A DNA stretch of 32,000 nt from an uncultured Alphaproteobacteria bacterium (GCA_964406405.1 CAYORN010000003.1:146689-178688), one strand, 5' to 3'; shown: positions 4,497-22,391, counted from the first letter of the stretch. Notes: generated from the sequence alone by a model not told the origin. Numbers and translations: made by a program.

Positions 4497-4841
4497 ATGA
4501 TGACTTCTAATCATCCCGACGGCGAGAAGCCCAAGCAGCCTGCGAACAAGACATCACCCGATCTCGATCTGAGTCAATTCGCCAATCTGATTGATCCAGC
4601 CACAGGCAAGACTTTTAGGGATGCCATGAGCGCGAAAGCCGAGCTGCTCAACCTTAAGGCGACACACTTTCATGACACCGGCGTGCGCGATTCGGCGATG
4701 CTTACGAGTGCGCCTCCGCCAGCGTATCAGTTCAGTGATCCGTATCGCGCTTCCGCTTCACGACACATTCCGCGCCGAAGTCGCATCAAAGCGTTTCTCA
4801 ATGGCGGTTTGAAAGAGCTCTTTCGCAAGAAATCGCGATAG
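4497..4841 (+). CDS. Hypothetical protein with a conserved basic C-terminal tail (paralog of 4861..5223)
   Basis: The ORF ends in ...IPRRSRIKAFLNGGLKELFRKKSR. This tail is shared with the next ORF at both protein and DNA level. Confidence 0.5.
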   Translation: MMTSNHPDGEKPKQPANKTSPDLDLSQFANLIDPATGKTFRDAMSAKAELLNLKATHFHDTGVRDSAMLTSAPPPAYQFSDPYRASASRHIPRRSRIKAFLNGGLKELFRKKSR

Positions 4842-4860: not shown

Positions 4861-5223
4861 ATGAGCCCATTCATGATTGATTCATCATCATCCACAAATC
4901 CTTCCCCGCCCGGAGATTCGGCACCCAAAGCCGATAAATCTCACCTTGACTTGAAACCCTCCGATGCCCAACAGAGTGCGATGAAGGCTCTGTCGTCTGA
5001 CGAGCAGGCAAGGGCCTATCACGGCGGACAGTATGCTGACGCGTCCATGACCGTTCGCCAGCCGGCAGAGCCAATTCGCGTCTCCAGCCAACTAACACCT
5101 GATGAAATAGAATTTCTAAGGGACCATGGTATTCTGATTTCTACTTCACCGCGTGCTCCGCGCCGAAGTCGCATCAAAGCGTTTCTTAGTCGCGGTTTGA
5201 AAAAACTCTTTCGCATGAGATAG
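4861..5223 (+). CDS. Hypothetical protein with a conserved basic C-terminal tail (paralog of 4497..4841)
   Basis: The ORF ends in ...APRRSRIKAFLSRGLKKLFRMR. It shares 29 identical nt (ccgcgccgaagtcgcatcaaagcgtttct) with the upstream paralog. Confidence 0.5.
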   Translation: MSPFMIDSSSSTNPSPPGDSAPKADKSHLDLKPSDAQQSAMKALSSDEQARAYHGGQYADASMTVRQPAEPIRVSSQLTPDEIEFLRDHGILISTSPRAPRRSRIKAFLSRGLKKLFRMR

Positions 5224-5794: not shown

Positions 5795-8700
5795 CTATGG
5801 CCACAATTCTGCTAGGTCTCGTGGCACGACAGTTGCAAAGACATCTAAGCCATCCCCCTTCCCAACTATGAATGAAGACTCCAACGCACGATTAAGAGAT
5901 TCCCACAGCACCGTTTGTTCCGCACTCAATTTCCCCTTCGTTCGTTGCAAGATCGGCATCAGGCTCCAGCGGATATTGATGGCCGGAGCATAGAGGGGCT
6001 TGACCGCAAGTAGTGACAGCACTTGCCCGCTAAACAGATCGGCGGGCTCTCTGGCGAGAAAAGCCGTCAGAATTCTCAAGAGGAGAATGCGGCCGCTAAG
6101 CAGATCATGCGATGCCTGATTGAACTCCCAACCAGTCTTGAGCGCGGCTTTGGCCAAGTCATAATCTCCATTCATGAGTAACGCCGCACCAAGCGCTTGA
6201 TATCGGTGGGCCATTTTGTGGGAATTCAACGGAACCTCGAGTGACTGGTATCCGTTAGCTTCTTGAAACTCGTTGATGGCACGCGGATACTCGCTGGCAG
6301 AGAGCGAGTTCACCCCAATGTTACTTAAGTATAAAGCCATTCTCGAACTGTCCCGCCCGTAACACTCCTCCGCAGTCCGCCTAGCATCTTTCAGAATCTC
6401 GCGTGCAGCTACGATCTCTCCACGATCCTCGATTATCCGTGCGAGAATGATCAAGACAGTCGCCTCAATGGGGCGATTTCTTATGTCCCATCCCTTGGCG
6501 TATGAACAGGCATTCCGAATTAAAAGTTCTGCTTCCTCGTCCTCGTGTCGATTACGAAGCGCTTCGGCAAGTGTAGCAGTGTCTTGGCATACCGTCGGGT
6601 GTGATTCACCTAAGCGATTGCGGCCGGACATCACAGCGCGTCTGAACAAACTGATGGCGTCATCAAGACGGCACATATCTTGATAGACCAAACCAAGGTT
6701 GATCTGACTAAGCGCAATCTCGTCACTATCCTCAACAAAGAGCTCTTGCGCCCGTCGCAGTGCATTTTCTAAGACAGGCGCGGCGTCATCGAGACGGCAC
6801 GTTGCCCGATATAAGCAGCCCAAATTCGTCGCAGTTTCCCATTGCAACCGAGCATTGGCATCACTATTCTTACAAATACTCCGGATGGAGAGTAGATGTC
6901 GTTCTGCTGCTCCCATGTTTCCCAAATGCAGGTTGTTGACGGCGATAAGATTGTGACACGACGTCACCGGGACATTAGGTCCACTCCGATCTTCACTCAG
7001 CGCTCGCAGTGTATGAGATGCCATCTGCAAAGCACTACTGTATTGTCCTACTTGTGTGAGAGCGGAACTTGTCTTCAACGCAAGGGACTGACCGAACGGA
7101 CGATTGTGAGTTAATGAGTGCTTAGATGCAGCCACCAGCGATTCAAGTTCCCATTCTGGGAATCCAAATAGAATTGAAGTGTCACATAAGAGTGCGCGAT
7201 TTATCAAATAGGAACTCATACGATAACTTACCGATAGCGACTGCGACCGAGTCGCATCAAGAATAGTCTCTTGAACCATACGGTGCATGCGGGTCAGCCG
7301 GGGCGTGCGATGATCATCTTCGAAATCCCCGATTTGTAGCAGTCGAAGGCTCAATAGATTGTTGACTAACAGCAACCACGGATCCTCATAGCCAGGGGGA
7401 GCGTCTTGACCTAACTTAGGAAAGTCTTCAGTAACAAGTGTCCGTAACCATGGAAGCGGAATGCTGTCGGGTGGCAATAATGCGGCGTAAGACAGCGTAA
7501 GCAGCTCATCTTGCCCAAGTAGAGCAAGCGTTGGCGCCAAAGTAGCTGATATTAGTCTTTCGCCATGCCTGATGCCGGTCTTGGTTGCCCTGGCCATTCC
7601 CTCCAATCCGGGCAGCCCTTCACGTCGCAGCCGCTCAAGCAACGCGGAGCACGTGATACTTCCAGTGCGTTCGCCGAGATGAATGGCCACTACCTCGATA
7701 GCGAGGGTGAATCCTCCAAGAAGTGCAGCGATCTCAAATGCCGCTGTACGCTCGGTTTCATCCGAGAAGTGCTCGCCGGGTTGGTAGCTCTCAATGAGTC
7801 TCAAGGCGTCCGTAGGGGGCAGTTCGTCCACGCAAAGCAGCGCGTGTTGATTGGGATCAAGTCCAATGTCGTCGGCACCCAAACGTGTAGTGGCCAGTAC
7901 GCGTAACCAGTGTTTGCCGGTCAGGATATCGGATTGTGGCGGTTTGAGCAATTCAGGTGAATCTACGTTGTCGAGCATCAGCAAGACCATAGGTTCAGGT
8001 GGGTGCTTATCACCGGAATGCGTGTCAGCTCCTCGAATCGCGCGCCGTTCCAGTTCCGCTAAGATGCGTTTGGCAGATCGCAGATCGTCTTTCTTCTCAT
8101 CCTCTGTCAAAGTTACGCCCAAATCAGACTCGAGCTTACGAAGTGCGGAGAGCAGGCAGGATTCACCTGCGCAACCGATCAGCCAGCGGCCGCCGGGATA
8201 AAAGTCGGCGTAGGCGTATGCATACTGGATAGCAAGGGAAGTCTTCCCTAACCCACCCAGACCTTGGAGAGCTGTCACAATGCCGAACTTGCCCAAGCCA
8301 ACTGCTTCATGAAGACGCCTCATCTCATCTTCGCGTCCTACAAACCGGGGGTTATGTGCGGGCAAGTTGCCTTGTGCCGCCGTAATCCGACGTAATCTAG
8401 ATAGCTTGGTGTGAAGCGAGTGCTCAAGGTCTTCAAGTCTCTTGCGAACATCTAAGCGCCGGAGCGCACCAACGCCCTCACTGTACCACGGGCGAAGGTC
8501 AAAGTAATTCCGCCGTCGCACGCTCTTCATCCAAGCCGATGCGTGCTGGTCGAAGTCCGGCGCATTAAGGCCGGGAATCTCAACGAAATAGATCGGTGCA
8601 ACGCCCTGTCCCTGTGCGGCTCGTGATTGCTCATACTTGAGATACTCGACAACTTCCCATTCGCAGTAATTGCTCACAAGGTAGTTAGGAGACAGGATGA

Positions 8701-8905
8701 TTAGCAAGATGTTCGACTGACGGAGACCCTCGAGAATACGATGCCGCCAGTCGTCCATGCCGTCAATGTCTTCAATATCGAAGAAACAGCGGAGGTTCTC
8801 ACACGCAAATTCGCGGTAGTCAGCTTCGATCTGCTGCTTGAATTCTGTGATACGTCCCGTTGTGTTGTCGCGTCGCGAATAGGAAATAAAAAGGTCGTAC
8901 GCCAT
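5795..8905 (-). CDS. TIR - NB-ARC/STAND NTPase - TPR protein (bacterial TNL-like NLR)
   Basis: N-terminus YDLFISYSRRD...ILLIILSPNYLVSNYCEWEVVE is a TIR domain that keeps the conserved Glu region. FVGREDEMRRL...GLGGLGKTSLA is the P-loop (about 8240-8263). MVLLMLDNVD is Walker B. The C-terminal roughly 450 aa are TPR-like helical repeats. The track ORF starts at TTG 8932. I prefer ATG 8905, which has GAGGAG upstream. Confidence 0.9.
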   Translation of the reverse strand: MAYDLFISYSRRDNTTGRITEFKQQIEADYREFACENLRCFFDIEDIDGMDDWRHRILEGLRQSNILLIILSPNYLVSNYCEWEVVEYLKYEQSRAAQGQGVAPIYFVEIPGLNAPDFDQHASAWMKSVRRRNYFDLRPWYSEGVGALRRLDVRKRLEDLEHSLHTKLSRLRRITAAQGNLPAHNPRFVGREDEMRRLHEAVGLGKFGIVTALQGLGGLGKTSLAIQYAYAYADFYPGGRWLIGCAGESCLLSALRKLESDLGVTLTEDEKKDDLRSAKRILAELERRAIRGADTHSGDKHPPEPMVLLMLDNVDSPELLKPPQSDILTGKHWLRVLATTRLGADDIGLDPNQHALLCVDELPPTDALRLIESYQPGEHFSDETERTAAFEIAALLGGFTLAIEVVAIHLGERTGSITCSALLERLRREGLPGLEGMARATKTGIRHGERLISATLAPTLALLGQDELLTLSYAALLPPDSIPLPWLRTLVTEDFPKLGQDAPPGYEDPWLLLVNNLLSLRLLQIGDFEDDHRTPRLTRMHRMVQETILDATRSQSLSVSYRMSSYLINRALLCDTSILFGFPEWELESLVAASKHSLTHNRPFGQSLALKTSSALTQVGQYSSALQMASHTLRALSEDRSGPNVPVTSCHNLIAVNNLHLGNMGAAERHLLSIRSICKNSDANARLQWETATNLGCLYRATCRLDDAAPVLENALRRAQELFVEDSDEIALSQINLGLVYQDMCRLDDAISLFRRAVMSGRNRLGESHPTVCQDTATLAEALRNRHEDEEAELLIRNACSYAKGWDIRNRPIEATVLIILARIIEDRGEIVAAREILKDARRTAEECYGRDSSRMALYLSNIGVNSLSASEYPRAINEFQEANGYQSLEVPLNSHKMAHRYQALGAALLMNGDYDLAKAALKTGWEFNQASHDLLSGRILLLRILTAFLAREPADLFSGQVLSLLAVKPLYAPAINIRWSLMPILQRTKGKLSAEQTVLWESLNRALESSFIVGKGDGLDVFATVVPRDLAELWP

Positions 8906-9027
8906 TAAGGCAAGACTCCTCTTTGGAGACAACGCTAGCGTAGCGAAGTGAAGATCTTAAGCATCGGGAAATACCCGATGCGCGAGTCGAAGGATTATTC
9001 TGCAGTAACTAATGGCGGACAGCGCCT

Positions 9028-11667
9028 TCAAATCCCGAGCCTCTGCACTGAATAACCCGCCCGAGCAAGAATCTCAGGAATGCCCGCCACCAGATCCCGG
9101 TCGATCTGTTTGATGTTCTCGGGAAGCTCTTCCCATTCTACTAAAAACTCGTTCTGCTCTGAATTGTCCTTCGATGGCTTTCCCCGCGTAAAGCCTGTTA
9201 TGAGCTTGGCTTCCATCCATAGCGCGTGCTCTTGTCGCGCCATGGTCTCAACTTCGTTCATCGAGAACTTGTAGACCGACTGATCTCCACGGGCTGGCAT
9301 CATGACAAGACCAATGGCTGCCAGTTTCTGTGGAATGGATTGAACGTTAACGCGGTTCGACTCTTTGGCCCATTCAGGAAGCTGATTGTATGGAATCAGC
9401 AGCGGATTCGTTTTCTTTTCCTCGCTCTTTTCCTCGCCAAATATGAAACCGTCAAGGCGTTTGCTTTCACAATAAGCTTCATGGGCTGCTTCAGCCAGCT
9501 TTTCAAGGATCTCCGGTGTTAACATGATTGCTTGAACCAATGACAAAAATTCCATTCCATTGACGTGTAGATTCAATTGCGCTTCGCCGGGTAGACACGA
9601 TCGCTCGAACTGAGTCTTGCCAACAAGTTGACTCATGTCGATAATTGCTTCCATGGAGCGCGCGCCATGTTTGTACTCGCGGACGTGCAGAAAAGCGTTC
9701 AACACACCGGGATCAATATTCACAGTACGTCGCCCGCTCTTACTTGCGATGATCTGCGGTGTCAGCCGTTCAAACATAGAGCGGAGCAGAATGGCGCGGC
9801 GGGTCACGAAATACGGATCGGAAGACCCATCCATCCCGGTTGGATTCGGTCCCATGACTTGAATACAGCCCTTCAAGCGGCTGATAAAGTCCGGTCCCTT
9901 GACTTCACGGAACACATCGTGACTTGCCAAGGTCTTTCCGAATGACTCGAAGGACTCGCTGGTCCCTCCAGCAAACACGAAGATGGCCTGGCCGATCGGA
10001 TGAGTAGTCGGCCCCTGTTGAAAGGCCCCGTCCTGCATCGGAGCTAGAAAATAGCGTAGCCAACCCAATGGCTGTCCCTGAAAGGTCGTATCAAATTCAT
10101 CAAAGAACACCAGGGGAATGTATCCCAGAAGTGCTTCATCGCGGACCTGGTGGAAGGCATTGTGAAGAGCTTCTACGTCGTCAAACTGCGACAAGTTGAA
10201 TTCCAGCTTTTTGATGAGACCTGGAAAGATCGACTTGGCCATTTCGGTGACACCGAAGGACTTGCCCGATCCGGGAGCACCAAATACCGCTATCGATAGC
10301 GGCCGCTTCTGACGATCCTTACCACAATATTCCGTCATCAGTACACGGATGCTGTGATAGTTCTCGATTTCTCGACGGTCAATCGTGGTAAGATTTCCGA
10401 AACGTGCGATCGGCACATTCTTGAGGGTATCGCCTATGCCTTTCAGCACTATATTCCGTGCAATTGAACTTAATGCGCCGCGATTGACGTCATCAAGAAT
10501 AGTCCAGTATTGGTTCGGTGAGGAATTGCCGGCATCCTGCGAACGAATCATGAAGTGAGCCGGATCCGGAACTTTCACGGATGCAAACTCTTCCACGGAC
10601 TTCCCGATTTCGGCGGCGACTGCAGCGAGTGGGAACGCTAACTGGACATCAGAACTACCCGTCGTTCGATCTCCATACCCTTCCAGGTGCAGTCTGCGCA
10701 TCGCGGCGATACCGCTCTGAATTGCAGCTGATAGGTTCGGGCTGGCTGGCGATGTCATCAATTGATACACGATGCTTGCGGTCATGCACGTTTTGTACCC
10801 CACCATGCCGCCTGGGTATGTGCTCGACCACATGCCTTCCATGGTTTGCCCGTCGAAAAAGATCCGCACCTGTCTATTAGTCAGTAACGCGGCGCCGGCC
10901 GTTCCTATGGAGACGACAATATGAGCGCACTGGGCTAGCGAATTTATGCAGGGATTGTAAACGAGTTCCCAGGCGAGGTCTTGCACTGTCCGTTCCCACG
11001 ACAAGCCGCGACTGATTTGGACTTCTGTCCCTCGCAGATCGTCGATGTTCATGACGACAATTAGGCGATCTGCCCAATGCTGCTGCAAGAACTCCCACAA
11101 CTGTCCTTGCGCAACCGGGCGCGACATTTTCACGACAATCCAGGGGGATTTGCGTGCCGTATCTCGCTTCAAGTGTGACCAGAGTTCAGGATGGTCGCGG
11201 AAACCCAGATCGGCATCATCAAACACGATAATCTCTGCTTTGACTATGTCGGTCAGCGAGCGTTTGGCCAGTTCGACCCAGCCACCGTCACTTCGGTCCA
11301 ACCCGGCAAACTCAGATACCCGCCAGGCGAGCTGTTCTTTGCTTCCCTTGATGTCGTACGGGAACTGCTTCCACAGCGCATAGGAATGATGACACCGGCG
11401 GTCGGCAGGATTGACAAGAAGATCGGCATCAGCGAATTTTCGGATCTCGTACTTACTTGCCCGATTATCCTGGACCTGTTCGGCGAGTTCTTCGATCAAA
11501 TTCCCCAACAAAGCCGCACCACCGCGTTGCCGGCAGGCGCGCGTGCCCGCTTCCGCCGTCCAAGAGTGGCTGACGCTTTCGTTTCTCTGAAGCCGCGCAA
11601 TGTTCCAGTCAATCGTCAGGTCGCCAGAGACCACGACCACTTTCTTTGGTTCATCTATCGTATGCAA
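9028..11667 (-). CDS. Three-part protein: PfkB/ribokinase-like N-terminal domain (tentative) - classical AAA+ ATPase - two RyR domains
   Basis: TTG start at 11667 with AAGGAG (11674-11679) 6 nt upstream. N-terminal KKVVVVSGDLTIDW, RQRGGAALLGNLIEELA and HIVVSIGTAGAALL resemble PfkB-fold motifs, but the GAGD catalytic motif is absent. VFGAPGSGKS is Walker A (about 10258-10281). LVFFDEFD is Walker B. LAPMQDG and IFVFAGGTS are AAA-like. The C-terminus has two repeats of the RyR-domain pattern (AEAAHEAYCESKRLDGFIFGEEK...NPLLIPYNQLPEWAKESNR and ARQEHALWMEAKLITGFTRGK...FLVEWEELPENIKQIDRDLV). Confidence 0.85.
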   Translation of the reverse strand: MHTIDEPKKVVVVSGDLTIDWNIARLQRNESVSHSWTAEAGTRACRQRGGAALLGNLIEELAEQVQDNRASKYEIRKFADADLLVNPADRRCHHSYALWKQFPYDIKGSKEQLAWRVSEFAGLDRSDGGWVELAKRSLTDIVKAEIIVFDDADLGFRDHPELWSHLKRDTARKSPWIVVKMSRPVAQGQLWEFLQQHWADRLIVVMNIDDLRGTEVQISRGLSWERTVQDLAWELVYNPCINSLAQCAHIVVSIGTAGAALLTNRQVRIFFDGQTMEGMWSSTYPGGMVGYKTCMTASIVYQLMTSPASPNLSAAIQSGIAAMRRLHLEGYGDRTTGSSDVQLAFPLAAVAAEIGKSVEEFASVKVPDPAHFMIRSQDAGNSSPNQYWTILDDVNRGALSSIARNIVLKGIGDTLKNVPIARFGNLTTIDRREIENYHSIRVLMTEYCGKDRQKRPLSIAVFGAPGSGKSFGVTEMAKSIFPGLIKKLEFNLSQFDDVEALHNAFHQVRDEALLGYIPLVFFDEFDTTFQGQPLGWLRYFLAPMQDGAFQQGPTTHPIGQAIFVFAGGTSESFESFGKTLASHDVFREVKGPDFISRLKGCIQVMGPNPTGMDGSSDPYFVTRRAILLRSMFERLTPQIIASKSGRRTVNIDPGVLNAFLHVREYKHGARSMEAIIDMSQLVGKTQFERSCLPGEAQLNLHVNGMEFLSLVQAIMLTPEILEKLAEAAHEAYCESKRLDGFIFGEEKSEEKKTNPLLIPYNQLPEWAKESNRVNVQSIPQKLAAIGLVMMPARGDQSVYKFSMNEVETMARQEHALWMEAKLITGFTRGKPSKDNSEQNEFLVEWEELPENIKQIDRDLVAGIPEILARAGYSVQRLGI

Positions 11668-11796
11668 TTACTACTCCTTTCACGGGTGGGATTGATCAAG
11701 GTCAGGAATTAGTATTGGTCACGTTGGCGAATCCAAGCCCTCATCGCACCCTCGCGACAGATACGAACGATAAGGATCTTGCTTTTCAATGTTGTA

Positions 11797-14700
11797 TCAA
11801 GGTGTCTCGTTTCTCGATTTCACATGGTCGAGAATCTTCTTTGTCTCTTCGGCCAAACCGATCAACCCATGGTGTATCGCCATTTCATATGCAGACTCTG
11901 CGAGCTTCTGCGCCTCGCCGCCCTGGTTCCGCTCCATTAGTATCTCCGCCTGATTTCCCAAGCTAAACGTCAAACCCTCTGGATTCCCAAGTTCTTGGCA
12001 CAATCGCTCCTGTTCCTTTAGTAAAGTCATAGCGCCATCCAGATCGCCACGGGCATACAGGATCAACGCTTGATTTCCTAGGCAGCTCTGCAAACCGTCC
12101 TTGTTCGCCAAATCCCGGCAGAGCTGCTCCTCTTCCTCGTGCAGCGCCATCGCCCCGCTTAGATCGCCCCGGGTTCGAAGGATCTCTGACTGGTTGCCAA
12201 GGCTTCGCGACAGGCTGAGCTTGTCGCCGAGTTCCCGGCAGAGTCGCTCCTGGTCCTGGAGCAAAGCCATCGCGCTATCCAGTTCGCCACGCGCATATTG
12301 GATCAGCCCTTGATTGCCTAAGCATGCTTGCAGGCTATCGCGTTTGCCCAATTCTCGAAAGATTTTTTCATTCTCCCTGCATAACACCATCGCATCGTCC
12401 AGATTCCCCTGTCGCATGAGGATCAGCGCTTGATTTTCCAGACATGCCGAAAGTTCATACTTGTTGCCCAGTTCTCGGCATAGGTGCTCTGTCTCCTTCA
12501 ATAGTGCCACAGCAGCGTCCAAATCGTTCCACATCCAGAGGATCACCGCTTGATTTTTCAGGACCGCTAACAGGATATCCTTGTCGCCTGATTCCCTGCC
12601 GAAGCGCTCTTGCTCTCTAAGCGACGCCATTGCACCTTCCAGATCACCATGGATCAGAAGGATTATCGCTTGATTGCCTAGGATTCGCGACAGGCTGAGA
12701 TTATCGCCCGCTTCCCGACAGAGACACTCACTCTCCTTGTACAGGGTCATTGCTCCGTCCAGATCGCCCCGAGTTTGAAGGATCATCGCTTGATTGTTTA
12801 GACTTGCCTGAAGACTGTTCTTGTTGCCCACTTCCCGGCAGAGGCGTTCACTTTCCTTGTATAGTGCAATCGCCCTGTCAAGATCGTCTTGAGTCTGAAA
12901 GATCGCCGCTAGATTGACCAGGCATGCCGAAAGGTTAACTATATCATCGGTGCTCCGGAAATGCTCCACCAAATCGGCACGAAGTCTCAGCGCTTCGTCA
13001 ACATACCCTGCGTCTGCGAGAAGACTCGACACTGGAAGGAGATATGAAAAATGGGTGTCGGCCACGAGATCACCGTAGGCATTGGCCATTCGTAGAGTGG
13101 AATTCTCCTCAATTCGCGTCCAGTACGCCCTTACCTCCCACTGATTGTCTTTCCAAGCCACACTGAAGAACTCCAACTTTGCCAGCAGATCGTAAAGCCG
13201 ACTCCATTCCTTCGCTTCTGCAAGTTGCCATGGCAATTCTTCCACCTTGTGGTCGGTAAGTTCGCGATTCATGAAGTAGTCGGCAATCTTCAGGTGGATG
13301 GAACGTTCATGCACAGGAGTGGGCAGGTACGCGGCGCGCACGGCCTCGCGTAGGAAATCATGGAAAAATCCGAGCAAGCCGGATCTCGAGACCAGCGAAT
13401 CACTCGCTGCAAGATAAAGCGGTGACCAAGCCGCTCGTGGCAAAGGCTGCCCGTTGGATCCTAACATGTCCAGCAATTCAGACTCCGAAAGACCACGCCG
13501 CGCCGCCCAGAGAAGTGACATGACGTCGCCTACGAGATTGGTATCTCCTTCGTAGTCCTCTTCCCAGCGGGCCAAGATTTTTCCGTAAAGTTCCGGAACT
13601 GTGTTAGCCGCAAGGTAATACCCGATGCGTTCATCGAGCCGCTCATGCATTCCAAATACACGCAGCTCTTCGAGCAGTGCACGCAAATAGAGCGGATTGG
13701 CGGTTTGCTTCGCGTCGGCAATGCGCGTTGCTCGTTCAGGGCTAAGGGCCTTTGTGTATTGTGCCAGATACTTTAGAATGAATTCCTGGCGCTCGTCGGC
13801 ATTAAGAGGTTCGACCTTCATTACCGGCCAGTCGCGCTTCATTAAATCATCTAACGACCGACCCGGCAATGTGGATACCACAAGCCTGATGTTTGCCGGA
13901 ATCACCGGCGGCAACCAAACCAAGTCAGGTGCTTGATCGCGATCTTCCAATTGGTTCAAAGCATCCAGAATCAGAACCACCTTTCCCCGCGCTGCCGTCA
14001 TGTGCAGCCAGTTGGCAAACGCAGAGCGTAACTCGTCAGGCTTGTCGGGGATCTCCTGCGTGATTCCAAACCGCCGCTTGAACTCGCCCATGATCCGCCG
14101 CAACATGGCTGACCAGTCGGTGCTACTCGATGATGCGCCGACAAAGTGCAGGATTATCAGATCGTCGGGATGTTGTTTGCGATGATGTTCAGCCCAGTTC
14201 GCCAGCAACGCTGATTTGCCTGATCCGGATTCGCCCAGCACAATGAGCGACTGACCATCTCCGTCAGCATGTTCATCGAGGCGCTGAAAATACTTGTCTC
14301 CGCCAATGTATACGCGGCGGCGGCTATCCGCAAAGGCTTCATGCTCGGCCGCTTCACGATCCAGCGGATCCGTGATCGGGGCGTCCGGATACAGGTTATC
14401 AATGAGCGCCTGCATGTCCCGCAGCACCAACTGACCAAAGGCCTTCGGATCCGGGTAGTTCTCTGCGACCGAAAAGCACTTTTTGCGAATGCGTTGCTTC
14501 AGTGCGGCCAGCTTTTCGTGCCGCTCTGCGGAGCGCTGTTCTGCTTCATCGCGTCCCCATCGCGTGATCTCCTCTTCGGTCGGCGCGTCCCGAAACATCG
14601 CTTGCCTGTCCGCCGGCAGCATATCTATGTACCTCGCATCACGAAAATAGAAAAAGGCGTGTTCCGCCATTTCCGGGTTGAGTAGCACTCCATGCAGAAT

Positions 14701-15081
14701 CTCAAGTTCGGTGACCGAGTGATTGTGGTGTTCCGCCAACCATTTTTCCTGCTCAATCAATTCTGCCGAAATCTTCTCGGGTATCCACCCGTATCGTTCC
14801 CCCAGGACACCGATGAAATACGGCCGGCAACGCTTGATCTCTTCCAGGCAAATGGGCAACACCTTGCCTTCGGCCTTCTGCTCGTCGGTCACACCCCAGC
14901 GCAGATCTACTTCACCCCAGGTTACCTGCCGTTGCTCGCAAAGCTTTCGCAGTTCAGGGAATACAAATTTGACTAATTCATCGCGCTCCGCGTACATATC
15001 CGCAAACGTGGACGACACAAAGACGCGGACGACGCGTTCGGTACTACCTGTCTGGGATCTTGGATGTTGTATGGCTGTCAT
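11797..15081 (-). CDS. DUF4062-like N-terminal domain - STAND P-loop NTPase - TPR array
   Basis: VRVFVSSTFADMYAERDEL...PYFIGVLGERYGWIP matches the DUF4062 pattern. LIVLGESGSGKSALLANW is the P-loop (about 14212-14235). VVLILDALNQLED is Walker B. The C-terminus carries nine very regular 40-aa TPR-like units. Confidence 0.9.
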   Translation of the reverse strand: MTAIQHPRSQTGSTERVVRVFVSSTFADMYAERDELVKFVFPELRKLCEQRQVTWGEVDLRWGVTDEQKAEGKVLPICLEEIKRCRPYFIGVLGERYGWIPEKISAELIEQEKWLAEHHNHSVTELEILHGVLLNPEMAEHAFFYFRDARYIDMLPADRQAMFRDAPTEEEITRWGRDEAEQRSAERHEKLAALKQRIRKKCFSVAENYPDPKAFGQLVLRDMQALIDNLYPDAPITDPLDREAAEHEAFADSRRRVYIGGDKYFQRLDEHADGDGQSLIVLGESGSGKSALLANWAEHHRKQHPDDLIILHFVGASSSSTDWSAMLRRIMGEFKRRFGITQEIPDKPDELRSAFANWLHMTAARGKVVLILDALNQLEDRDQAPDLVWLPPVIPANIRLVVSTLPGRSLDDLMKRDWPVMKVEPLNADERQEFILKYLAQYTKALSPERATRIADAKQTANPLYLRALLEELRVFGMHERLDERIGYYLAANTVPELYGKILARWEEDYEGDTNLVGDVMSLLWAARRGLSESELLDMLGSNGQPLPRAAWSPLYLAASDSLVSRSGLLGFFHDFLREAVRAAYLPTPVHERSIHLKIADYFMNRELTDHKVEELPWQLAEAKEWSRLYDLLAKLEFFSVAWKDNQWEVRAYWTRIEENSTLRMANAYGDLVADTHFSYLLPVSSLLADAGYVDEALRLRADLVEHFRSTDDIVNLSACLVNLAAIFQTQDDLDRAIALYKESERLCREVGNKNSLQASLNNQAMILQTRGDLDGAMTLYKESECLCREAGDNLSLSRILGNQAIILLIHGDLEGAMASLREQERFGRESGDKDILLAVLKNQAVILWMWNDLDAAVALLKETEHLCRELGNKYELSACLENQALILMRQGNLDDAMVLCRENEKIFRELGKRDSLQACLGNQGLIQYARGELDSAMALLQDQERLCRELGDKLSLSRSLGNQSEILRTRGDLSGAMALHEEEEQLCRDLANKDGLQSCLGNQALILYARGDLDGAMTLLKEQERLCQELGNPEGLTFSLGNQAEILMERNQGGEAQKLAESAYEMAIHHGLIGLAEETKKILDHVKSRNETP
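11884..12963 (-). repeat. Nine tandem 120-nt (40-aa) coding repeats in the TPR array of the STAND protein
   Basis: Units start at 12963, 12843, 12723 ... 12003 on the minus strand. The consensus is roughly LCRELG[DN]K.SL...LGNQA.IL..RGDLDGAM.L.KE.ER. Confidence 0.8.
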
Positions 15082-15094
15082 GAGTTGCGAAAGC

Positions 15095-16789
15095 TCACGC
15101 CGGCTGTTTCACGTTTAAGAACCTTACCAGCCCGCGCCAGTCCTGGGATTCGGTCAGCACGATATTGTCTACCCGGCGCACGATGCTTTCGAACTCCTCA
15201 ACCGATGCCGTTTCGACGGTAGAAGCGATCGCCTGCAATTGGTCCGACATGTCTTCACTTCGGGCAGCCAACCGTTCATACTCCCGATGGCTGCGGAACC
15301 AAATAATGGCTGCACCCAGCGAAGGCAGGATTAGGGCGGAGAGAACGGCGAACCTCCCCAAGTAATCAACACTAGGCCACAAGATGAAGCTGAAGATATG
15401 CGCCAAAGCAGCGAGCATCGTCGCATAGAAGAGGGTGCTGCCGATAACCTCAAACCGACGATCGAGAATTGTGCGCTCGTCGGCACGCTTGAGATGCCAT
15501 CGTCGTTGGTCGCGCACCCAGACATTGGCAATGAACGCGCGCTTGGCGTCGAGTTCAGTGCCCAAAGCTGGTGGCGGGGTGTTCAATTTGCGGATGATAC
15601 AATTGAATACGCAGGCCGTCCAATCGCACCTCGCTTCAAAACCTGTTAATGCTGTGTCCTGTTTCAGCGGCGACGGTGAAACCCCTACGGCCAGAAGAAA
15701 GGATGCAGCACGAAGCCGCTCGGCGAGAAAGCGCAGCAATATCCATTGGCTATGATGGCCTTTCCTGTGAGATCGTGCTACCAACAGTAAGATTCCAACC
15801 AGGGCCATTGCCTCGAGCGTGAAGAACGCAATGTCCCAACTCGCAACCATAGCACCGAGGGCAACAAACACGATGGCAGCCATCGCGAGCACATAAACTA
15901 AGATGCCGGTCAGTCGATATGAACGTTGGTTTCGTTTGGCGATGGCTGAGGCGATAGCGTAGGCAGGTACGAGCTTTTGTTCCACCTCTTGAATCGATGC
16001 CGCGTTCAGGCCACCCGCTTTGGCCGGATTAAACGGGTTTGTCCACTCAAGTGACCCAGCATGTTCTGGACTGCCCTGATTGTACGACGTCACAAACGTT
16101 TTCATGGCAACATGGCCCGTGCGGTCGTAGCGGCGAAGCCGGTAACGGCGGATCGGGTAGTCACCTCTACTTACGTCAATGAGGTATGTAGGTACGCCAA
16201 GGTCATGTGCAAGATCCAGGATATCTCGTGTGCCGCCGAGTTGACCTGCCCGATGGGGATCGTACAGGGCGATCAGGAAATCGCAATGCCGAAGCACGTA
16301 CTCCCCTGCTTCCCGATACGCGGCATGCCGTAAGTCTCGTTGCTCCTGAGGAGTCTTGGCATCTGCAGCAATGAGACGACCCCGCAAGTAGATCGTAGAT
16401 GTGGGGTCTTTGGGCAGAAAAGCATCGAACTCTCGGCGCGACTCCTCGACAGCATTTAGACGTAGTGGTGCCCCGCGTGCATCCAGCCCAAAGGTGTTTT
16501 CGTAATCCGCTCTCGTCAAGGGAATAACAGCCATTAAGCTTGCATCAGTGTTCCTCAGTACTTCATGCGCAACAATCCGATCGGCACCATCGGCAAGACA
16601 CGAAACCACCTCCCATTGCAAGTGAACTGTCTGTTCAGGATCAATGAGCTTTTGAATGTCCTTGAGTACCGCTCGCACCTGATCGACGAGCTCTTTGTTC
16701 GCGACCAAATCTCGATGCCCTGTGACGCCGACGCGAACTCGAAAGTGAAAACGGCAATCGGGACTGTCATTCTCTTGTGCATCAGACAT
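15095..16789 (-). CDS. SLOG (LOG-like Rossmannoid) domain fused to a SLATT-like 4-TM module (predicted ligand-gated membrane effector)
   Basis: VGVTGHRDL...SCLADGADRIVAHEVL...AYREAGEYVLRHCDFLIALYD...LGGTRDILDLAHDLGVPTYLI is a SLOG/YpsA-like pattern (about 16160-16747). Two hydrophobic hairpins follow (LTGILVYVLAMAAIVFVALGAMV / IAFFTLEAMALVGILLLVA and IGSTLFYATMLAALAHIFSFIL / FAVLSALILPSLGAAIIWF, about 15290-15922). Each hairpin is followed by an amphipathic helix. The track ORF starts at GTG 16834. I prefer ATG 16789, which has AGGAG 8 nt upstream. The stop lies 13 nt before the STAND gene start. Confidence 0.8.
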   Translation of the reverse strand: MSDAQENDSPDCRFHFRVRVGVTGHRDLVANKELVDQVRAVLKDIQKLIDPEQTVHLQWEVVSCLADGADRIVAHEVLRNTDASLMAVIPLTRADYENTFGLDARGAPLRLNAVEESRREFDAFLPKDPTSTIYLRGRLIAADAKTPQEQRDLRHAAYREAGEYVLRHCDFLIALYDPHRAGQLGGTRDILDLAHDLGVPTYLIDVSRGDYPIRRYRLRRYDRTGHVAMKTFVTSYNQGSPEHAGSLEWTNPFNPAKAGGLNAASIQEVEQKLVPAYAIASAIAKRNQRSYRLTGILVYVLAMAAIVFVALGAMVASWDIAFFTLEAMALVGILLLVARSHRKGHHSQWILLRFLAERLRAASFLLAVGVSPSPLKQDTALTGFEARCDWTACVFNCIIRKLNTPPPALGTELDAKRAFIANVWVRDQRRWHLKRADERTILDRRFEVIGSTLFYATMLAALAHIFSFILWPSVDYLGRFAVLSALILPSLGAAIIWFRSHREYERLAARSEDMSDQLQAIASTVETASVEEFESIVRRVDNIVLTESQDWRGLVRFLNVKQPA

Positions 16790-17102
16790 TTGGATCGCTC
16801 CTGTAATTGATGCGTCTCTCTCGAGAACAGTCACCTGTTCGTAACTTGTGAATCTTGATGGTGTCAGTGCTTCATTGTCAATTCTGGGGAAATGCGCTTG
16901 TTCGACATCTTACGACTCCGGTACCTTCGGACCTACCTGACGCAAGATCCGTTCGTCCCACTTGTGATTTACTGGCCATCCCGTAAAACGGATCAATCTG
17001 GTGACTAACCAGTAGCTCTACCTGACAGGCAGTAGTGAGGCGCACCTGTCGTCCTCGCTTCGAAAGTGTACGCAAAGACGTGTAATCTCTCGACGCGGAT
17101 AC

Positions 17103-18176
17103 TTACTTCCCAAAATGCGGCAGAATGCTATCATTGAAATGGAGCTTGGCCTTGAGCTCCGGCGGAGGTGCCACTCTTTCGGATGAAGGAAGGGGAAAGG
17201 GATCAATGTAATCAATCCCCCGTAACTTGAGTGCGAGGCGCCACTCTCTGTCAACCCACTTCGATCGACTAGCTGCTTCTGACCAGAACAGATAGAAAAC
17301 GTCCTGCCGAGGTATCATTTTGAAGAGGACTTCTTCGTAGTGGTCCCCCGATCGCAGACTGAGGACGTCCAAGAACACATTGACGCCCGCCTTCTCCAAT
17401 CCGTGGACCCTTGCCAACACTGCTTCTTGGTCTTCATGTGCATAGGAAGCAAATGCCGAGTGATACCTTTTGTCCCTCACTCGCAACTGTCGCGTATAAA
17501 TAGTCGGTCGGGATCTGATCTTAAGTGCGAAATCAACGCGCGCAATTTCAAGTCCGTTCACATAGAATTGCGCAACTCCGTGTCGGCTTCCACGCTTACA
17601 GTATTTAGGTACGGTGAGCGCAAATGTCGTCTTGCCGCTCTTCCCGTCCCAGACCAAAGGCTTGGCAGGTGGCTCGACGCTCACGCCCTCTATGCGCACA
17701 CTAACATAGAGCACAGCGCCGCGCAGAACACGGGCAGGGCCCTGTGTTATGATTAGCGGCTGCCCACGCACTTCATTGTGTACCATCTCCATCACCTGCG
17801 CACGATATTTCCGAAGGTAGGCCCAGATACTCAGCACGTGCACACCACCCGGCATCAGCACGGAAGGTGTAATTACAGCGAGATGAACGTCGTCAGTAAG
17901 CCGTCCCATACTCGTTTCCGGATGTGAAGCATTATCTCCAACATCGAGTTGGTCGTATGGCTGAGACTCGGTTTTCAGGCCGCCGGCTGTCGAAGTTGCT
18001 TCCGTTGTCGGTTTTGGAGTGGAACGTGAGCGTTTAGCGGGTTTCTCCGCCGATGGTCGAGATTCACGGTCCTTATCGCCATTCTCTTTAGACTTGACCA
18101 TTCCGAGTCCGTTAGCGGGAAACAAGAAGCCGATCAAACGGAAAAGCAGCGATAAGAGTTTCCATAAAGTCCCCAT
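17103..18176 (-). CDS. Membrane-anchored TIR-domain protein (N-terminal hydrophobic anchor, K/S/T/P linker, beta-rich middle domain, C-terminal TIR)
   Basis: AGGAG lies 7 nt upstream of ATG 18176. The N-terminus is LWKLLSLLFRLIGFLFPANGLG followed by a highly basic linker. The C-terminus YHSAFASYAHEDQ...VFLDVLSLRSGD...DVFYLFWSEAASRSKWVDREWRLAL is a TIR_2-like pattern that keeps the conserved Glu. Confidence 0.85.
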   Translation of the reverse strand: MGTLWKLLSLLFRLIGFLFPANGLGMVKSKENGDKDRESRPSAEKPAKRSRSTPKPTTEATSTAGGLKTESQPYDQLDVGDNASHPETSMGRLTDDVHLAVITPSVLMPGGVHVLSIWAYLRKYRAQVMEMVHNEVRGQPLIITQGPARVLRGAVLYVSVRIEGVSVEPPAKPLVWDGKSGKTTFALTVPKYCKRGSRHGVAQFYVNGLEIARVDFALKIRSRPTIYTRQLRVRDKRYHSAFASYAHEDQEAVLARVHGLEKAGVNVFLDVLSLRSGDHYEEVLFKMIPRQDVFYLFWSEAASRSKWVDREWRLALKLRGIDYIDPFPLPSSERVAPPPELKAKLHFNDSILPHFGK

Positions 18177-18659: not shown

Positions 18660-19755
18660 TCACACGTCATCATCGCTGTGAATTTTGTCGCGAATAATGG
18701 CAATGATTGTCTCGAGGTGTCGACGCAGTTCCTCCAAATCATCTGTGTACCTGAATATGCTTTCTGTCCGGAAGTCGAACGGCACAGGCGGCATTGTTCC
18801 ATCATCGGCAGTCCGTCGGAGAAGAATCACAGGTTTGTTTTCAGCATGAGCCATTCCCAGTTCATACATGACGTTAGGGCGATCGCCTGTGGTGTCGGCA
18901 ATTGCTGAAAAAACAGTGCCGTAATCCATCGCGGATTGCTCCCACGACATTGCCTGTTGGTACAACTCGGTCGGTTCGCACCGGGTGCAGTCCGTGGGCG
19001 GCAAGAGCTGGGACGATCGCGTTGTCATATACCGGATCACTGGCTTCTTGAAACGGCATAATTATGAAGCAACTTCTCGTGAAACCTCGCAACAAGCAGC
19101 TACAGACGCGTTTTGCCAGCGCACGAATTTCTGTGTCGCACAGATCCGCGAGCCGAAGCTGTTCGAAGTCGGTGGCTTCAGTATCGGTGATTTCAAACCA
19201 ACTGCAGATTTCGGATCGAACATCCCTCCACGCTTCAGCCGATGAACCACCGCCAAATGGCAAGGGTAGGATAGGGCGCTCTATCGCAAGTGCGACATCC
19301 AGCACGGACCGTGTGCCATGCTCGCCTTCAACCGAGATCACAACATCCGCGGAATGAACCATGCTGAAGCGGCGTGCCTGGGGGGTACGGTGTGAAAGCA
19401 CTTGGATACGACCTTCGTGAAAGCGAACGAGCTTGCTGAAGTCCTTTTCCCGGTCAGGCAGAACAGTCTCAACGCGTTCCTCGGCGGGTATTCCGCTCGA
19501 ACGCAGACCTTCCAGAACTCCGTCAATGATCGTCCAGTCCGCCGTTGGGTGATTGGGCGAGTCAAGCCTCGCTTTCAAGCCACCAGTAACAACAATGAGA
19601 CCGTCTTCAGCGGCCAAGAGTTTTCCGAGTTCCTTCCAGAGAAGGGCGGCATTCACTGACAGGCGACTGTCACCGCTAACAAACAGACGACGGGGATGGA
19701 TTATGGCCTTTATTATGGCGATGATCTTAGTCTGGTGAATGTCGACATTCGCACG
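18660..19755 (-). pseudogene. Decayed SLOG/LOG-like + nucleoside 2-deoxyribosyltransferase-like (TIR-related) fusion gene
   Basis: Track ORFs 18874..19656 and 18660..19040 are two frames of one gene. Frame A has LIVVTGG...RRFSMVHSADVVISVEGEHGTRSVLDVALAIERPILPLPFGGG (LOG/SLOG) and then CFIIMPFQEASDPVYDNAIVPALAAHGLHPVRTD. Frame B continues with VFSAIADTTGDRPNVMYELGMAHAENKPVILL. Removing one base from the A6 run at 18908-18913 joins the two frames (..GLRHCFSAIADTTG..). The frame is also open upstream to 19755 and encodes RRLFVSGDSRLS, the expected first strand, but that stretch has no ATG, GTG or TTG. Confidence 0.7.
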
Positions 19756-19897: not shown

Positions 19898-20899
19898 CTA
19901 CGGCCACGCAAGTCTGTCTAGCCAATGCAGAGAGTCGAGAACATCTTCGATAACTGTACCACTGAGACGTTCGAGAACATCCCGTTCCGGCTTCACGTCG
20001 TCAACCGCGTGTTGTCGTGAGCCTGCAACTATCCTGTTATCCACGGAATCGTACAGGCAGAAACCAAGTTCAGCTTTCGCCAAGACCAATGTGGACGTCC
20101 GCTCCGTCTTCGTTTGCGCTGCACCGAACAGAATTCTCCTTACTTTTAGACGTCTCGCAAGCTGAAGTAAAGATTGAGTATCCGCTTTGGCAGATATCAC
20201 ATCCCCGACTTCGCGTCGCTCCGCTTCAATCGTGGTCGGGATGAAGACTCGGTAGCGCTGGCTTCGCAACGCTACACTCCAACCCAATTCCACCGTTCCT
20301 GTCGGGTCATTAGACAGAACCGCAATTGTCCCCCGATCCATGAGAAACTCCCGATAGTAGATCAAGCCCCCGATACCGAGAATGACAACAACGAACAACA
20401 TCGAAACTGCGTTGATAAGCCATTTTCTGACATGGCGTTTCTTGTCAATCCGCTCATCGATTGAACTACTGGATTGCGCTGCGGGGGAAATGCCCAGCTG
20501 TTCTAAGCCTTGTACAATGCGCGGCAGGACTACATCCATGCCTGCCGGTGGAATCGGCAGTGACGTTGACAGCACGAGAGCTTGTCTCCATTCAGGTCTC
20601 CTTTGCTTTAGCTCCTTATACGTCACACCATGAAGCAATGGAATGAAGGGCTTTCCTTCTTCGTAAGCGCGAACGACTTCCGCCGTCACCTGCTGCGAAA
20701 CCAGAGAATGCTCTGAGACGATGAGCACAACTGCTCGAGATTCGTCTATCGATTTTCCAATCTGTACAAGGTAGACTTCCCCCGGCACGTTGTCGCGCTG
20801 GTAATACCACGTCGTGTAGCCGGTCCCCTCAAGTCCCGAGGCAACAACTTGCGCCAATTTGAGGTCAGGCTCACTGTAACTAATGAAGATGTCACACAT
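19898..20899 (-). CDS. TIR - single TM - C-terminal extracytoplasmic domain protein
   Basis: CDIFISYSEPD...AVVLIVSEHSLVSQQVTAEVVRAYEEGKPFIPLL is a TIR_2-like pattern. WLINAVSMLFVVVILGIGGLIYY is the TM segment. It is followed by a roughly 145-aa domain I cannot assign. The start is 2 nt after the stop of the upstream small ORF. Confidence 0.85.
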   Translation of the reverse strand: MCDIFISYSEPDLKLAQVVASGLEGTGYTTWYYQRDNVPGEVYLVQIGKSIDESRAVVLIVSEHSLVSQQVTAEVVRAYEEGKPFIPLLHGVTYKELKQRRPEWRQALVLSTSLPIPPAGMDVVLPRIVQGLEQLGISPAAQSSSSIDERIDKKRHVRKWLINAVSMLFVVVILGIGGLIYYREFLMDRGTIAVLSNDPTGTVELGWSVALRSQRYRVFIPTTIEAERREVGDVISAKADTQSLLQLARRLKVRRILFGAAQTKTERTSTLVLAKAELGFCLYDSVDNRIVAGSRQHAVDDVKPERDVLERLSGTVIEDVLDSLHWLDRLAWP

Positions 20900-21175: not shown

Positions 21176-21667
21176 TTACTTGTCCGCAGCAGACGGGTGC
21201 GTAAGTTCGAAAACGCTGAAACAATGGGTAGCGTAGGCGGCCACATCGGCATGCCCCCGCTTGCCAAGAACGTCGCAAATCGTGTCATGCATCACATGCA
21301 GTGGAAAGGGCATCTCCAAGAAGCTGTCGAACCCAGCAAGCCGAACTGTTTCTGGGAGATCTTTCGCCACGAAACCGGAGTACGCGATCATCGCGATGCG
21401 AGAATCACGGTTACGGATTGATGTTCCTATTTCGACGCCGCGCTTCTGTATTCCAAACATGCATGTTGTCAGCAAAACTGGCGGTCCATCTTTAGCATAG
21501 TAATCGAGGGCATCGGCCACCGTGCTTGCAGTCGTTGTTTTGAATCCGTGTGCGTTCAGAAAGTTGACCATCAGGTCGCGGAGAACGCTGTCACAATCAA
21601 CGCACAACGCTCGGTAACGTGGAATCGCAGGATCTCCGTTAAGCGAATGCCGATCATTCAAACCCAC
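21176..21667 (-). CDS. Stand-alone degenerate (pseudo-)receiver domain protein
   Basis: The layout is CheY-like: ALCVDCDSVLRDLMVNFLNAHGF..TVADALDYY..PPVLLTTCMFG...IAMIAYSG...AGFDSFLEMPF. The phospho-acceptor Asp position reads Thr (LLTTC) and the conserved Lys reads Met (LEMPF). GTG start at 21667. Confidence 0.6.
   Translation of the reverse strand: MGLNDRHSLNGDPAIPRYRALCVDCDSVLRDLMVNFLNAHGFKTTTASTVADALDYYAKDGPPVLLTTCMFGIQKRGVEIGTSIRNRDSRIAMIAYSGFVAKDLPETVRLAGFDSFLEMPFPLHVMHDTICDVLGKRGHADVAAYATHCFSVFELTHPSAADK

Positions 21668-22300: not shown

Positions 22301-22391
<91 letters not shown>

Follow-up and report, generated by a model that had tools for sequence, protein, structure and literature searches.

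In a 32,000-nucleotide (nt) stretch of DNA from an uncultured Alphaproteobacteria bacterium (GCA_964406405.1 CAYORN010000003.1:146689-178688; the window hereafter means this whole stretch), we analysed two abutting genes, A and B, which encode a SLOG-SLATT membrane protein and an NTPase resembling NLRs (nucleotide-binding leucine-rich-repeat receptors), together with a third gene, C, whose product carries ryanodine receptor (RyR) repeats. An earlier note, made from the sequence alone, had taken A and B for a two-gene module, with the hypothesis that a STAND protein in it triggers a second messenger that opens a SLATT pore. Direct reading of the sequence confirmed the coordinates of A and B as minus-strand open reading frames (ORFs). 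The core of the locus contains the following features (aa, amino acids; TM, transmembrane).

15095 to 16789, minus strand: gene A, a SLOG-SLATT-SLATT membrane protein of 564 aa (ORF, ribosome-binding site with ATG, identical public protein)
16085 to 16750, minus strand: YpsA-like SLOG domain of A, aa 14-235 (AlphaFold2 model, Foldseek, motifs)
15689 to 16003, minus strand: first SLATT-type module of A, with two TM helices, aa 263-367 (best NCBIfam SLATT_1 stretch, aa 282-381)
15122 to 15553, minus strand: second SLATT module of A, aa 413-556 (Pfam SLATT_1, TM-like segments)
15082 to 15094, minus strand: spacer of 13 nt between A and B, free of terminator-like sites (sequence read)
11797 to 15081, minus strand: gene B, a DUF4062-NACHT-TPR protein of 1094 aa (Pfam)
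14389 to 15036, minus strand: TIR-like NADase domain (DUF4062) of B, aa 16-231 (match to PDB 11gz_A)
13759 to 14247, minus strand: NACHT NTPase of B, aa 279-441 (Pfam NACHT, 41.1 bits; Walker A K289, Walker B D373)
11872 to 13284, minus strand: TPR array of B, about aa 600-1070, the presumed sensor (Pfam TPR_12, TPR_MalT)
9028 to 11667, minus strand: gene C, an 879-aa protein with a C_N domain, an AAA+ domain and tandem RyR (R12) repeats (Pfam)
10348 to 11667, minus strand: C_N domain of C, aa 1-440, rare, with 58 homologs in all
9031 to 9567, minus strand: RyR Repeat12-type domain of C, aa 701-879 (profile against PDB RyR2 Repeat12)

How tightly are A and B coupled? The TGA stop codon of A ends at 15095 and the ATG of B at 15081, with a 13-nt spacer between them (gctttcgcaactc). 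A terminator scan found no minus-strand terminator-like site in the intergenic gaps from 8933 to 17102; its 19 matches all fall inside ORFs, and shuffled sequences gave 14.7 +/- 4.0, so there is no excess. Because the gap is so short and the intergenic regions lack terminator-like sites, A and B look co-transcribed, as their neighbours probably are. The operon-like coupling of the earlier note thus stands, but its two-gene unit proves too small, with C a regular companion and TIR-NLR and TIR genes on the flanks. With regard to the start of A, an AGGAG lies 8 nt upstream of the ATG; a mechanical ORF call reaches a GTG at 16834, and the identical public protein is the 564-aa form.

The N-terminal domain of A was recognised by its fold. 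No Pfam model called a SLOG domain in the window protein, and a phmmer search of A against the PDB returned no match. A full-length AlphaFold2 model (predicted local distance difference test, pLDDT, 89.7) likewise had no significant Foldseek match in the PDB because the long helical bundle dominates; the isolated N-terminal model alone gave the SLOG fold. That model, covering aa 1-250 (pLDDT 88.8), has YpsA (2nx2; E=1.1e-6, prob 1.0) as its top Foldseek match in the PDB, and further matches include ShosA (8zva), the N-terminal domain of TRPM2 (9jje) and LOG (5its). The family alignment keeps the SLOG motifs GVTGHR, LA(E/D)GADR and GGT-x-(E/D), and the polar residues H25, R26, D70 and D170 are invariant. 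Among 42 members of the A family, sub-threshold Pfam matches were obtained to Nuc_deoxyrib_tr (11/42), YpsA (5) and YAcAr (4), and to cpYpsA as well. With motifs, weak family matches and the modelled structure in agreement, the N-terminus of A is confirmed at the level of the predicted fold as a SLOG domain of the YpsA-like clade, a clade that includes SLOG domains sensing cyclic ADP-ribose (cADPR) (Iyer et al. 2022). The modelled Rossmannoid fold with its glycine-rich loops places A in the SLOG superfamily, and ligand binding is predicted.

The remainder of A belongs to the SLATT family, as curated models above their cutoffs and paired TM helices indicate. NCBIfam SLATT_1 scores 46.4 bits over two stretches (cutoff 41), Pfam SLATT_1 scores 29.7 bits on aa 425-551 (cutoff 26.3), and Pfam DUF4231 matches aa 279-365 at 18.8 bits, which is under its cutoff. 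Four TM-like segments are present, two within a hydrophobic block at aa 290-340 and one each at aa 448-474 and 477-500. No PADLOC model matched A or C.

Gene B belongs to a large family, with more than 3700 matches in bacteria and some archaea, those listed being 48-62% identical to it. Pfam DUF4062 matches aa 19-112 (53.3 bits), and a search with the first 231 aa found the solved structure of human TEP1's TIR-like domain (PDB 11gz_A; E=1.9e-26). The residue aligned with the catalytic E1008 of TEP1 (numbering after Osinski et al. 2026) is E127 of B (codon 14701-14703), which is kept in 36/36 homologs, and R96, aligned with TEP1 R976, is kept in 35/36. Domain and catalytic Glu together place B among the DUF4062 TIR-like NADases, and NAD+ hydrolysis is predicted. 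The earlier note had described DUF4062 as a TIR- or nucleoside deoxyribosyltransferase (NDT)-like fold, and DUF4062 has since been published as a TIR-like NADase (bioRxiv 10.64898/2026.05.01.722283). The Walker A motif of the NACHT domain reads GSGKS, its Lys being K289. Weak Pfam matches to NPHP3_N, NPHP3_hel and TPR_NPHP3 were also found; PADLOC gave weak TPR and mad8 matches only and no specific Avs model. The order of an N-terminal effector, a central STAND NTPase and C-terminal repeats is that of the Avs and other bacterial NLR-like STAND proteins. Every domain named in the earlier note was thereby recovered: SLOG by fold, SLATT above the cutoffs, and DUF4062, NACHT and TPR by Pfam, with the catalytic Glu of DUF4062 conserved throughout the homologs compared.

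Gene C was absent from the earlier two-gene account. Its Pfam RyR match scores 76 bits, its AAA match is weak, and its RyR repeats match RyR2 Repeat12 at E=6.6e-36 in a profile comparison with the PDB, which places C in the R12 family (PF02026); ligand binding is predicted. Phage RyR-domain proteins of the RyDEP type bind 2'/3'cADPR at nanomolar affinity or cleave it to ADP-ribose (ADPR), with residues H75, W78, H100 and D117 involved (Lopez Rivera et al., PMC13232231). In repeat 2 of C these positions correspond, at identical spacing, to H814, W817, N839 and D856. H814 and D856 are present in 14/14 homologs and W817 is conserved; the Asn of the window at position 839 is a His in 10/14 homologs. 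In repeat 1, an invariant Asn replaces the Asp. RyDEP and C thus share an R12-type fold and equally spaced ligand residues, but the viral RyDEP is small and serves as an anti-Thoeris enzyme or sponge, whereas C is host-encoded, in a putative immune operon, and has its tandem RyR repeats fused to AAA+ and C_N. The 440-aa C_N domain had no match in Pfam or PDB profile searches; our impression is that its motif pattern is ribokinase/PfkB-like.

Do these families occur together in other genomes? In a forward test we inspected 80 genome loci anchored on SLOG-SLATT homologs (79 usable), and in a reverse test 80 metagenome loci anchored on DUF4062-NACHT homologs, many of them on short contigs. Both sets are the best 80 matches and not a census, and the counts come from crude ORF calls and home-made hidden Markov models (HMMs) built from family alignments. 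In the reverse test, a RyR-domain gene lies within 500 nt of the anchor at 14/80 loci and within 10 kb at 24/80, an A-family SLOG gene at 8/80 and 12/80, and a SLATT gene at 2/80 and 6/80. The density of SLOG genes is 0.118 per kb within 500 nt as against 0.005-0.013 per kb farther away, roughly a 10-fold difference, and that of RyR genes falls from 0.207 to 0.011 per kb. Since both densities drop so steeply with distance, the adjacency is not a by-product of crowding in defence islands and the co-occurrence is non-random. A RyR or SLOG gene is present within 3 kb at 22/80 loci, and at 11/33 when both flanks extend at least 1 kb. Independent gene calls for the loci of the closest B homologs agree with the reverse test. 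In the forward test, RyR genes lie within 500 nt of SLOG-SLATT at 19/79 loci and within 3 kb and 10 kb at 23/79 each, and DUF4062 at 2/79, 3/79 and 8/79, respectively; the immediate downstream neighbours encode Pfam RyR in 10 cases and TrkA_N in 11. The expectation that the two families would be neighbours in many genomes is therefore borne out in part: SLOG genes lie beside DUF4062-NACHT genes beyond chance, and the association of the A and B families is real but facultative, their pairing a minority arrangement. The RyR-domain protein is the most consistent companion of both.

Where the families do meet, the arrangement can be as tight as in the window, with DUF4062-NLR and SLOG genes overlapping by 8 nt in locus L129 and separated by 45 nt in L013. 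The gene set recurs in shuffled order in L004 (Ignavibacteriota), L032 (Flavobacteriales), L012 (Deltaproteobacteria) and L013 (Acidobacteriaceae), and also in L149. In L165 the order is a C-type RyR protein, a 171-aa SLOG protein and DUF4062-NACHT-TPR. The locus of the closest B homolog, L164, has two DUF4062-NLR genes and single TIR-NLR, RelA_SpoT-LSDAT-RyR, NUDIX and C-type RyR genes. The RyR partner proteins take three forms, namely C_N-AAA-RyR, TrkA_N-RyR and RelA_SpoT-TPR-RyR, the last usually with an LSDAT (SLOG) domain too. RelA_SpoT-TPR-LSDAT(SLOG)-RyR proteins adjoin DUF4062-NLR genes in L095, L146 and L164; in L110 the adjoining protein is RelA_SpoT-TPR-RyR, with no LSDAT called by Pfam. 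In L094 (6317-9658), C_N, AAA+, RyR and a C-terminal SLOG domain are all part of one 1113-aa protein, encoded immediately upstream of a DUF4062-NACHT-TPR gene, a fusion that ties the SLOG and RyR parts together. Of the SLOG-SLATT partner envisaged in the earlier note, it is therefore SLOG that recurs; SLATT is optional, as SLOG-only genes and the SLOG-RyR fusion show.

Several side observations concern these RyR partners. Proteins with RelA_SpoT at the N-terminus and RyR at the C-terminus, 800-865 aa long, lie at L095 7464-9971, L110 4952-7546, L146 4616-7204, L001 12060-14468 and L164 4456-7026, and all five adjoin DUF4062-NLR or SLOG-SLATT genes. Pfam finds TPR in those of L095, L110 and L146 and LSDAT_prok, a TRPM-type SLOG domain, in those of L095, L146 and L164; these proteins may be signal-controlled toxSAS-like effectors. 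A 142-aa NUDIX gene (L164 7189-7617) between the RelA_SpoT-LSDAT-RyR and DUF4062-NLR genes could be an ADPR-degrading accessory. In eight loci from metagenome-assembled genomes of Acidobacteriaceae (L047, L052, L060, L066, L071, L077, L080 and L081), a protein of about 680 aa is encoded directly downstream of SLOG-SLATT, at a distance of no more than about 30 nt. Every one has a divergent RyR repeat (phmmer, HMM), and the two that were scanned, from L047 and L060, have the NAD-binding Pfam domain TrkA_N. Most of these eight loci have no TIR or DUF4062 gene directly adjacent.

We propose a same-strand immune cluster of NAD+/ADP-ribose type with A and B at its centre, a Thoeris-like pathway with an NLR-embedded signal generator and a core of A, B and C. 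In our judgement this proposal, which we favour, falls a little short of being probable. First, the TPR array of B would recognise an invader, as the architecture suggests. Second, the NACHT domain would oligomerise and bring the DUF4062 domains together; activation by oligomerisation has been shown for other DUF4062 and TIR proteins. Third, the DUF4062 domain would cleave NAD+, an activity established for homologs of this enzyme class, whose catalytic Glu is kept here. Fourth, ADPR or a derivative would bind the YpsA-like SLOG domain of A, which would then assemble or open its four-TM SLATT part and damage the membrane, by analogy with ThsA, TRPM2 and ThsH. ThsH is the SLATT effector of type VII Thoeris, in which it is paired with a TIR protein; its toxicity is triggered by canonical cADPR, for which the sensing pockets lie between the SLATT protomers (Yirmiya et al., bioRxiv 10.64898/2025.12.03.692087). 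Finally, the RyR repeats of C may bind the same class of ligand, as RyR-domain homologs bind cADPR isomers, and C would serve either as a second, ATP-driven effector or as an off-switch. We consider the latter role because RyDEP cleaves cADPR isomers with a His/Asp pair that is retained in repeat 2. Signal from the flanking TIR-NLR and TIR genes probably reaches these receptors as well. We read the whole as a signalling system because the generator and binding domains are conserved while the outputs vary (SLATT, RelA_SpoT, AAA+/C_N, TrkA_N), and we count in its support that a canonical TIR occupies the slot of DUF4062 beside SLOG-SLATT, within 3 kb, at 46/79 loci, and that the L164 cluster contains a NUDIX gene.

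A number of observations weigh against this proposal. The products of KpSwz and TEP1 are ADPR and nicotinamide alone, cyclic products not having been seen; DUF4062 chemistry as published therefore leaves the special messenger of the earlier note unproven. Human TEP1 is active, but full-length NPHP3, NWD1 and NWD2 are inactive in vitro. B itself has Ala at position 27 (codon 14999-15001), where most homologs carry Arg; this is the position of TEP1 R908, mutation of which lowers NADase activity, and the window DUF4062 may be less active or altered in specificity. Two operons of the 'SLOG and 4TM' type provided no protection when placed in E. coli (Yirmiya et al., bioRxiv 10.64898/2025.12.03.692087). 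The genomic evidence cuts the same way in places: DUF4062 is found within 500 nt at just two of the 79 SLOG-SLATT loci, and no SLOG or RyR neighbour is seen for about 70% of the close DUF4062-NACHT relatives. At the locus of an archaeal DUF4062-NACHT homolog the SLOG and RyR partner genes are absent, and the closest A homolog (49% identity), which adjoins a RelA_SpoT-RyR gene, has no TIR or DUF4062 gene annotated within 10 kb. The SLOG domains of relatives are about 30-37% identical to that of A and, in a crude comparison, do not group by partner type. Furthermore, the window has TIR genes of its own that could serve A:

17103 to 18176, minus strand: TIR-domain gene of 357 aa directly upstream of A (Pfam TIR_2, aa 242-317; ThsB-like match in PADLOC)
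5795 to 8932, minus strand: TIR-STAND-TPR gene downstream of C, a second NLR-like sensor (Pfam TIR_2, AAA_16, TPR)

Could A and B simply be two independent systems that abut, with B a self-contained abortive-infection protein of the Avs/NLR type that kills through NAD+ depletion, comparable to Swarozyc, and A the effector of a conventional, TIR-based '4TM-SLOG' Thoeris system served by one of these two genes? We consider this somewhat unlikely, and the evidence is divided. A canonical TIR is the usual neighbour of SLOG-SLATT, at 31/79 loci within 500 nt, 46/79 within 3 kb and 55/79 within 10 kb, as against two and three loci for DUF4062 at the first two distances, and Pfam TIR_2 is found in 14/50 upstream and 11/62 downstream neighbours. 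A gene related to the one at 17103-18176 adjoins a SLOG-SLATT gene in L010, and homologs of the one at 5795-8932 do so in L024, L032 and L039; the former is a rival candidate for the signal generator. Known DUF4062 proteins deplete NAD+, the product detected being ADPR, most DUF4062-NLR genes stand alone, and there are documented defence islands that combine multiple TIR genes with multiple effectors. On the other hand, the TIR gene upstream of A is separated from it by 313 nt, whereas A and B are 13 nt apart, and SLOG genes are enriched about 10-fold directly beside DUF4062-NLR genes. In addition, DUF4062 is the sole TIR-like gene seen on the contig at many loci with SLOG and RyR genes beside it (L013, L086, L088, L094, L097, L129, L149, L155 and L165), and the SLOG-only and fused variants, lacking a SLATT output, are not simply a neighbouring '4TM-SLOG Thoeris'.

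The chemistry of DUF4062 brings up another explanation, namely that B mainly depletes NAD+ and that the by-product ADPR serves the SLOG and RyR proteins as a further, amplifying cue for cell death, with no dedicated messenger. DUF4062 enzymes do yield ADPR, the Foldseek match 9jje is a structure of TRPM2 in complex with ADPRP, and a NUDIX gene lies in the L164 cluster. The SLOG-type domain of TRPM2 is the ADPR-gated element. Linear ADPR is present in the post-reaction structure of RyDEP (PMC13232231). However, a receptor tuned to so common a metabolite as ADPR would risk autoimmunity, and known Thoeris effectors discriminate between specific isomers. We regard such feed-forward amplification as unlikely.

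The SLOG domain could also be an enzyme, either an N-glycosidase of the LOG/YpsA type or a nucleotide-processing one, such that a SLOG or RyR protein converts or destroys the DUF4062 product and A and C are regulators of B or immunity factors for it. SLOG does occur beside DUF4062-NLR genes as a free protein of 170-220 aa that lacks an output domain, the LOG clade is catalytic (Iyer et al. 2022), the polar residues H25, R26, D70 and D170 are invariant, and repeat 2 of C retains the His/Asp dyad of the RyDEP glycosidase. In the window, though, SLOG is fused to a SLATT module of the pore type, which fits a sensor-effector, and the SLOG domains of ThsA and TRPM2 act as sensors. An enzymatic role seems to us highly improbable.

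How does the proposed A-B-C pathway compare with known systems? In Thoeris, as is predicted here, an NAD+-cleaving enzyme of TIR fold is encoded beside a protein that joins a ligand-binding SLOG domain to a cell-killing output. Type I Thoeris pairs the TIR protein ThsB with the SIR2-SLOG protein ThsA, whose logic of SLOG plus output is shared by A; the SLATT output, the architecture of SLOG with four TM helices and the islands with several TIR genes are further likenesses. The SLOG effector of the window adjoins a TIR-like DUF4062 generator, and canonical TIR genes are also nearby. In contrast to Thoeris, the generator is DUF4062 within a NACHT-TPR NLR and not a canonical TIR, and a RyR-domain protein is a regular third member. 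In terms of architecture, ThsH has been described without the SLOG domain that A adds to SLATT. 'SLOG and 4TM' is listed among the predicted Thoeris effector types, in a survey from which the TIR domains of Avs (AVAST) proteins were excluded (Yirmiya et al., bioRxiv 10.64898/2025.12.03.692087). Neither of the two TIR sequences published for '4TM SLOG' operons matches the TIR genes beside our SLOG-SLATT loci, so A is likened to that type by its architecture.

According to two 2026 preprints, ADPR and nicotinamide are the products of NAD+ cleavage by DUF4062, which acts in the single-gene defences Swarozyc and Evangelion; neither mentions SLOG, SLATT or RyR partners, and of gene context they note just that some DUF4062 genes share an operon with other enzymes. 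Swarozyc (KpSwz) and Evangelion (Eva01) share with B the DUF4062 NADase with its conserved catalytic Glu and a proposed sensor-driven oligomerisation. They differ in having a non-NTPase auxiliary domain and in acting alone through NAD+ depletion, whereas B has a C-terminal part made of NACHT and TPR and lies in a multigene cluster. In TEP1, NWD1, NWD2 and NPHP3, as in B, DUF4062 directly precedes NACHT and repeats follow, which are TPRs in NPHP3 as well; unlike these eukaryotic proteins, B is bacterial and operon-encoded and lacks TROVE and WD40 domains, and TEP1 works in the vault particle. By its architecture the cluster seems to belong to no described Thoeris type, and it is neither Swarozyc nor Evangelion. 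We found no paper describing the combination of DUF4062-NLR, SLOG-SLATT and RyR, the founding 2015 SLOG/SLATT paper being outside the search. The novelty seen in the earlier note accordingly holds for the combination, but not for its parts: TIR-to-SLOG signalling is Thoeris, TIR with SLATT is type VII, and 'SLOG and 4TM' had already been listed.

In plants, oligomerisation of TIR-NLRs activates a TIR-fold NADase whose product is read by separate receptors and leads to a membrane-channel response. These receptors are EDS1 heterodimers and helper NLRs. The likeness to the window set is one of logic and not of ancestry: the receptors are unrelated, being SLOG and RyR here, and the TIR family differs.

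Why would such a pathway matter? No function was assigned to DUF4062 until 2026, and then solely that of an NAD+-depleting executioner; the binding of cADPR isomers by RyR domains was also shown in 2026, solely as a phage counter-defence. Host SLOG and RyR domains with interchangeable outputs beside DUF4062-NLR genes argue for NLR-embedded, TIR-like signal generators in bacteria, comparable to the TIR-NLRs of plants, and the host may use RyR repeats to receive signals or to quench them. With its three genes, the locus is a concrete system for identifying the ligand, and it opens two old questions to testing: what links cADPR and ADPR to RyR and TRPM channels, and what animal DUF4062-NACHT proteins do. 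We further entertain, as decidedly doubtful, the idea that the cassette preserves an ancestral ADP-ribose pathway all three parts of which are kept in animals, namely a DUF4062-NACHT generator and the SLOG (TRPM2) and RyR Repeat12 receptors. If so, DUF4062 NLRs would generate signals and not just deplete NAD+, R12 would be a true receptor site of the (c)ADPR type, and animal DUF4062 proteins might supply ligand to TRPM or RyR channels.

The surroundings of the cluster have features of their own. Within the region the GC content is about 0.49-0.55, compared with 0.58-0.62 beyond it (profile over 3000-27500), and a tRNA-Lys (CTT) gene at 22318-22391 borders the immune cluster; the GC drop and the bordering tRNA gene suggest an island gained by horizontal transfer. 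The window ORFs that were scanned include no integrase. A non-immune role was given low weight, as TIR, NLR and SLATT genes lie together in this low-GC island beside a tRNA gene.

Upstream of the TIR gene at 17103-18176, a minus-strand SLOG (LDcluster4) ORF at 18874-19656 overlaps, in a different frame, a TIR/NDT-like ORF at 18660-19040. Taken together, the end of the SLOG ORF and the body of the TIR/NDT-like one resemble one Rossmannoid domain, and the pair looks like a single SLOG plus TIR-like gene split by a frameshift; Logan contig L003, which is independent, has the same overlapping pair. Type IX Thoeris has an effector of 'TIR and SLOG' architecture. The upstream end of the same-strand cluster is occupied, again on the minus strand, by a TIR_2 protein whose TM helix is central (19898-20899) and by a receiver-only response regulator (21176-21667). 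Finally, we note that two small plus-strand ORFs, at 4497-4841 and 4861-5223, adjoin each other at the island edge and, as judged from their near-identical basic tails (PRRSRIKAFLNGGLKELFRKKSR and PRRSRIKAFLSRGLKKLFRMR), encode predicted paralogous proteins.

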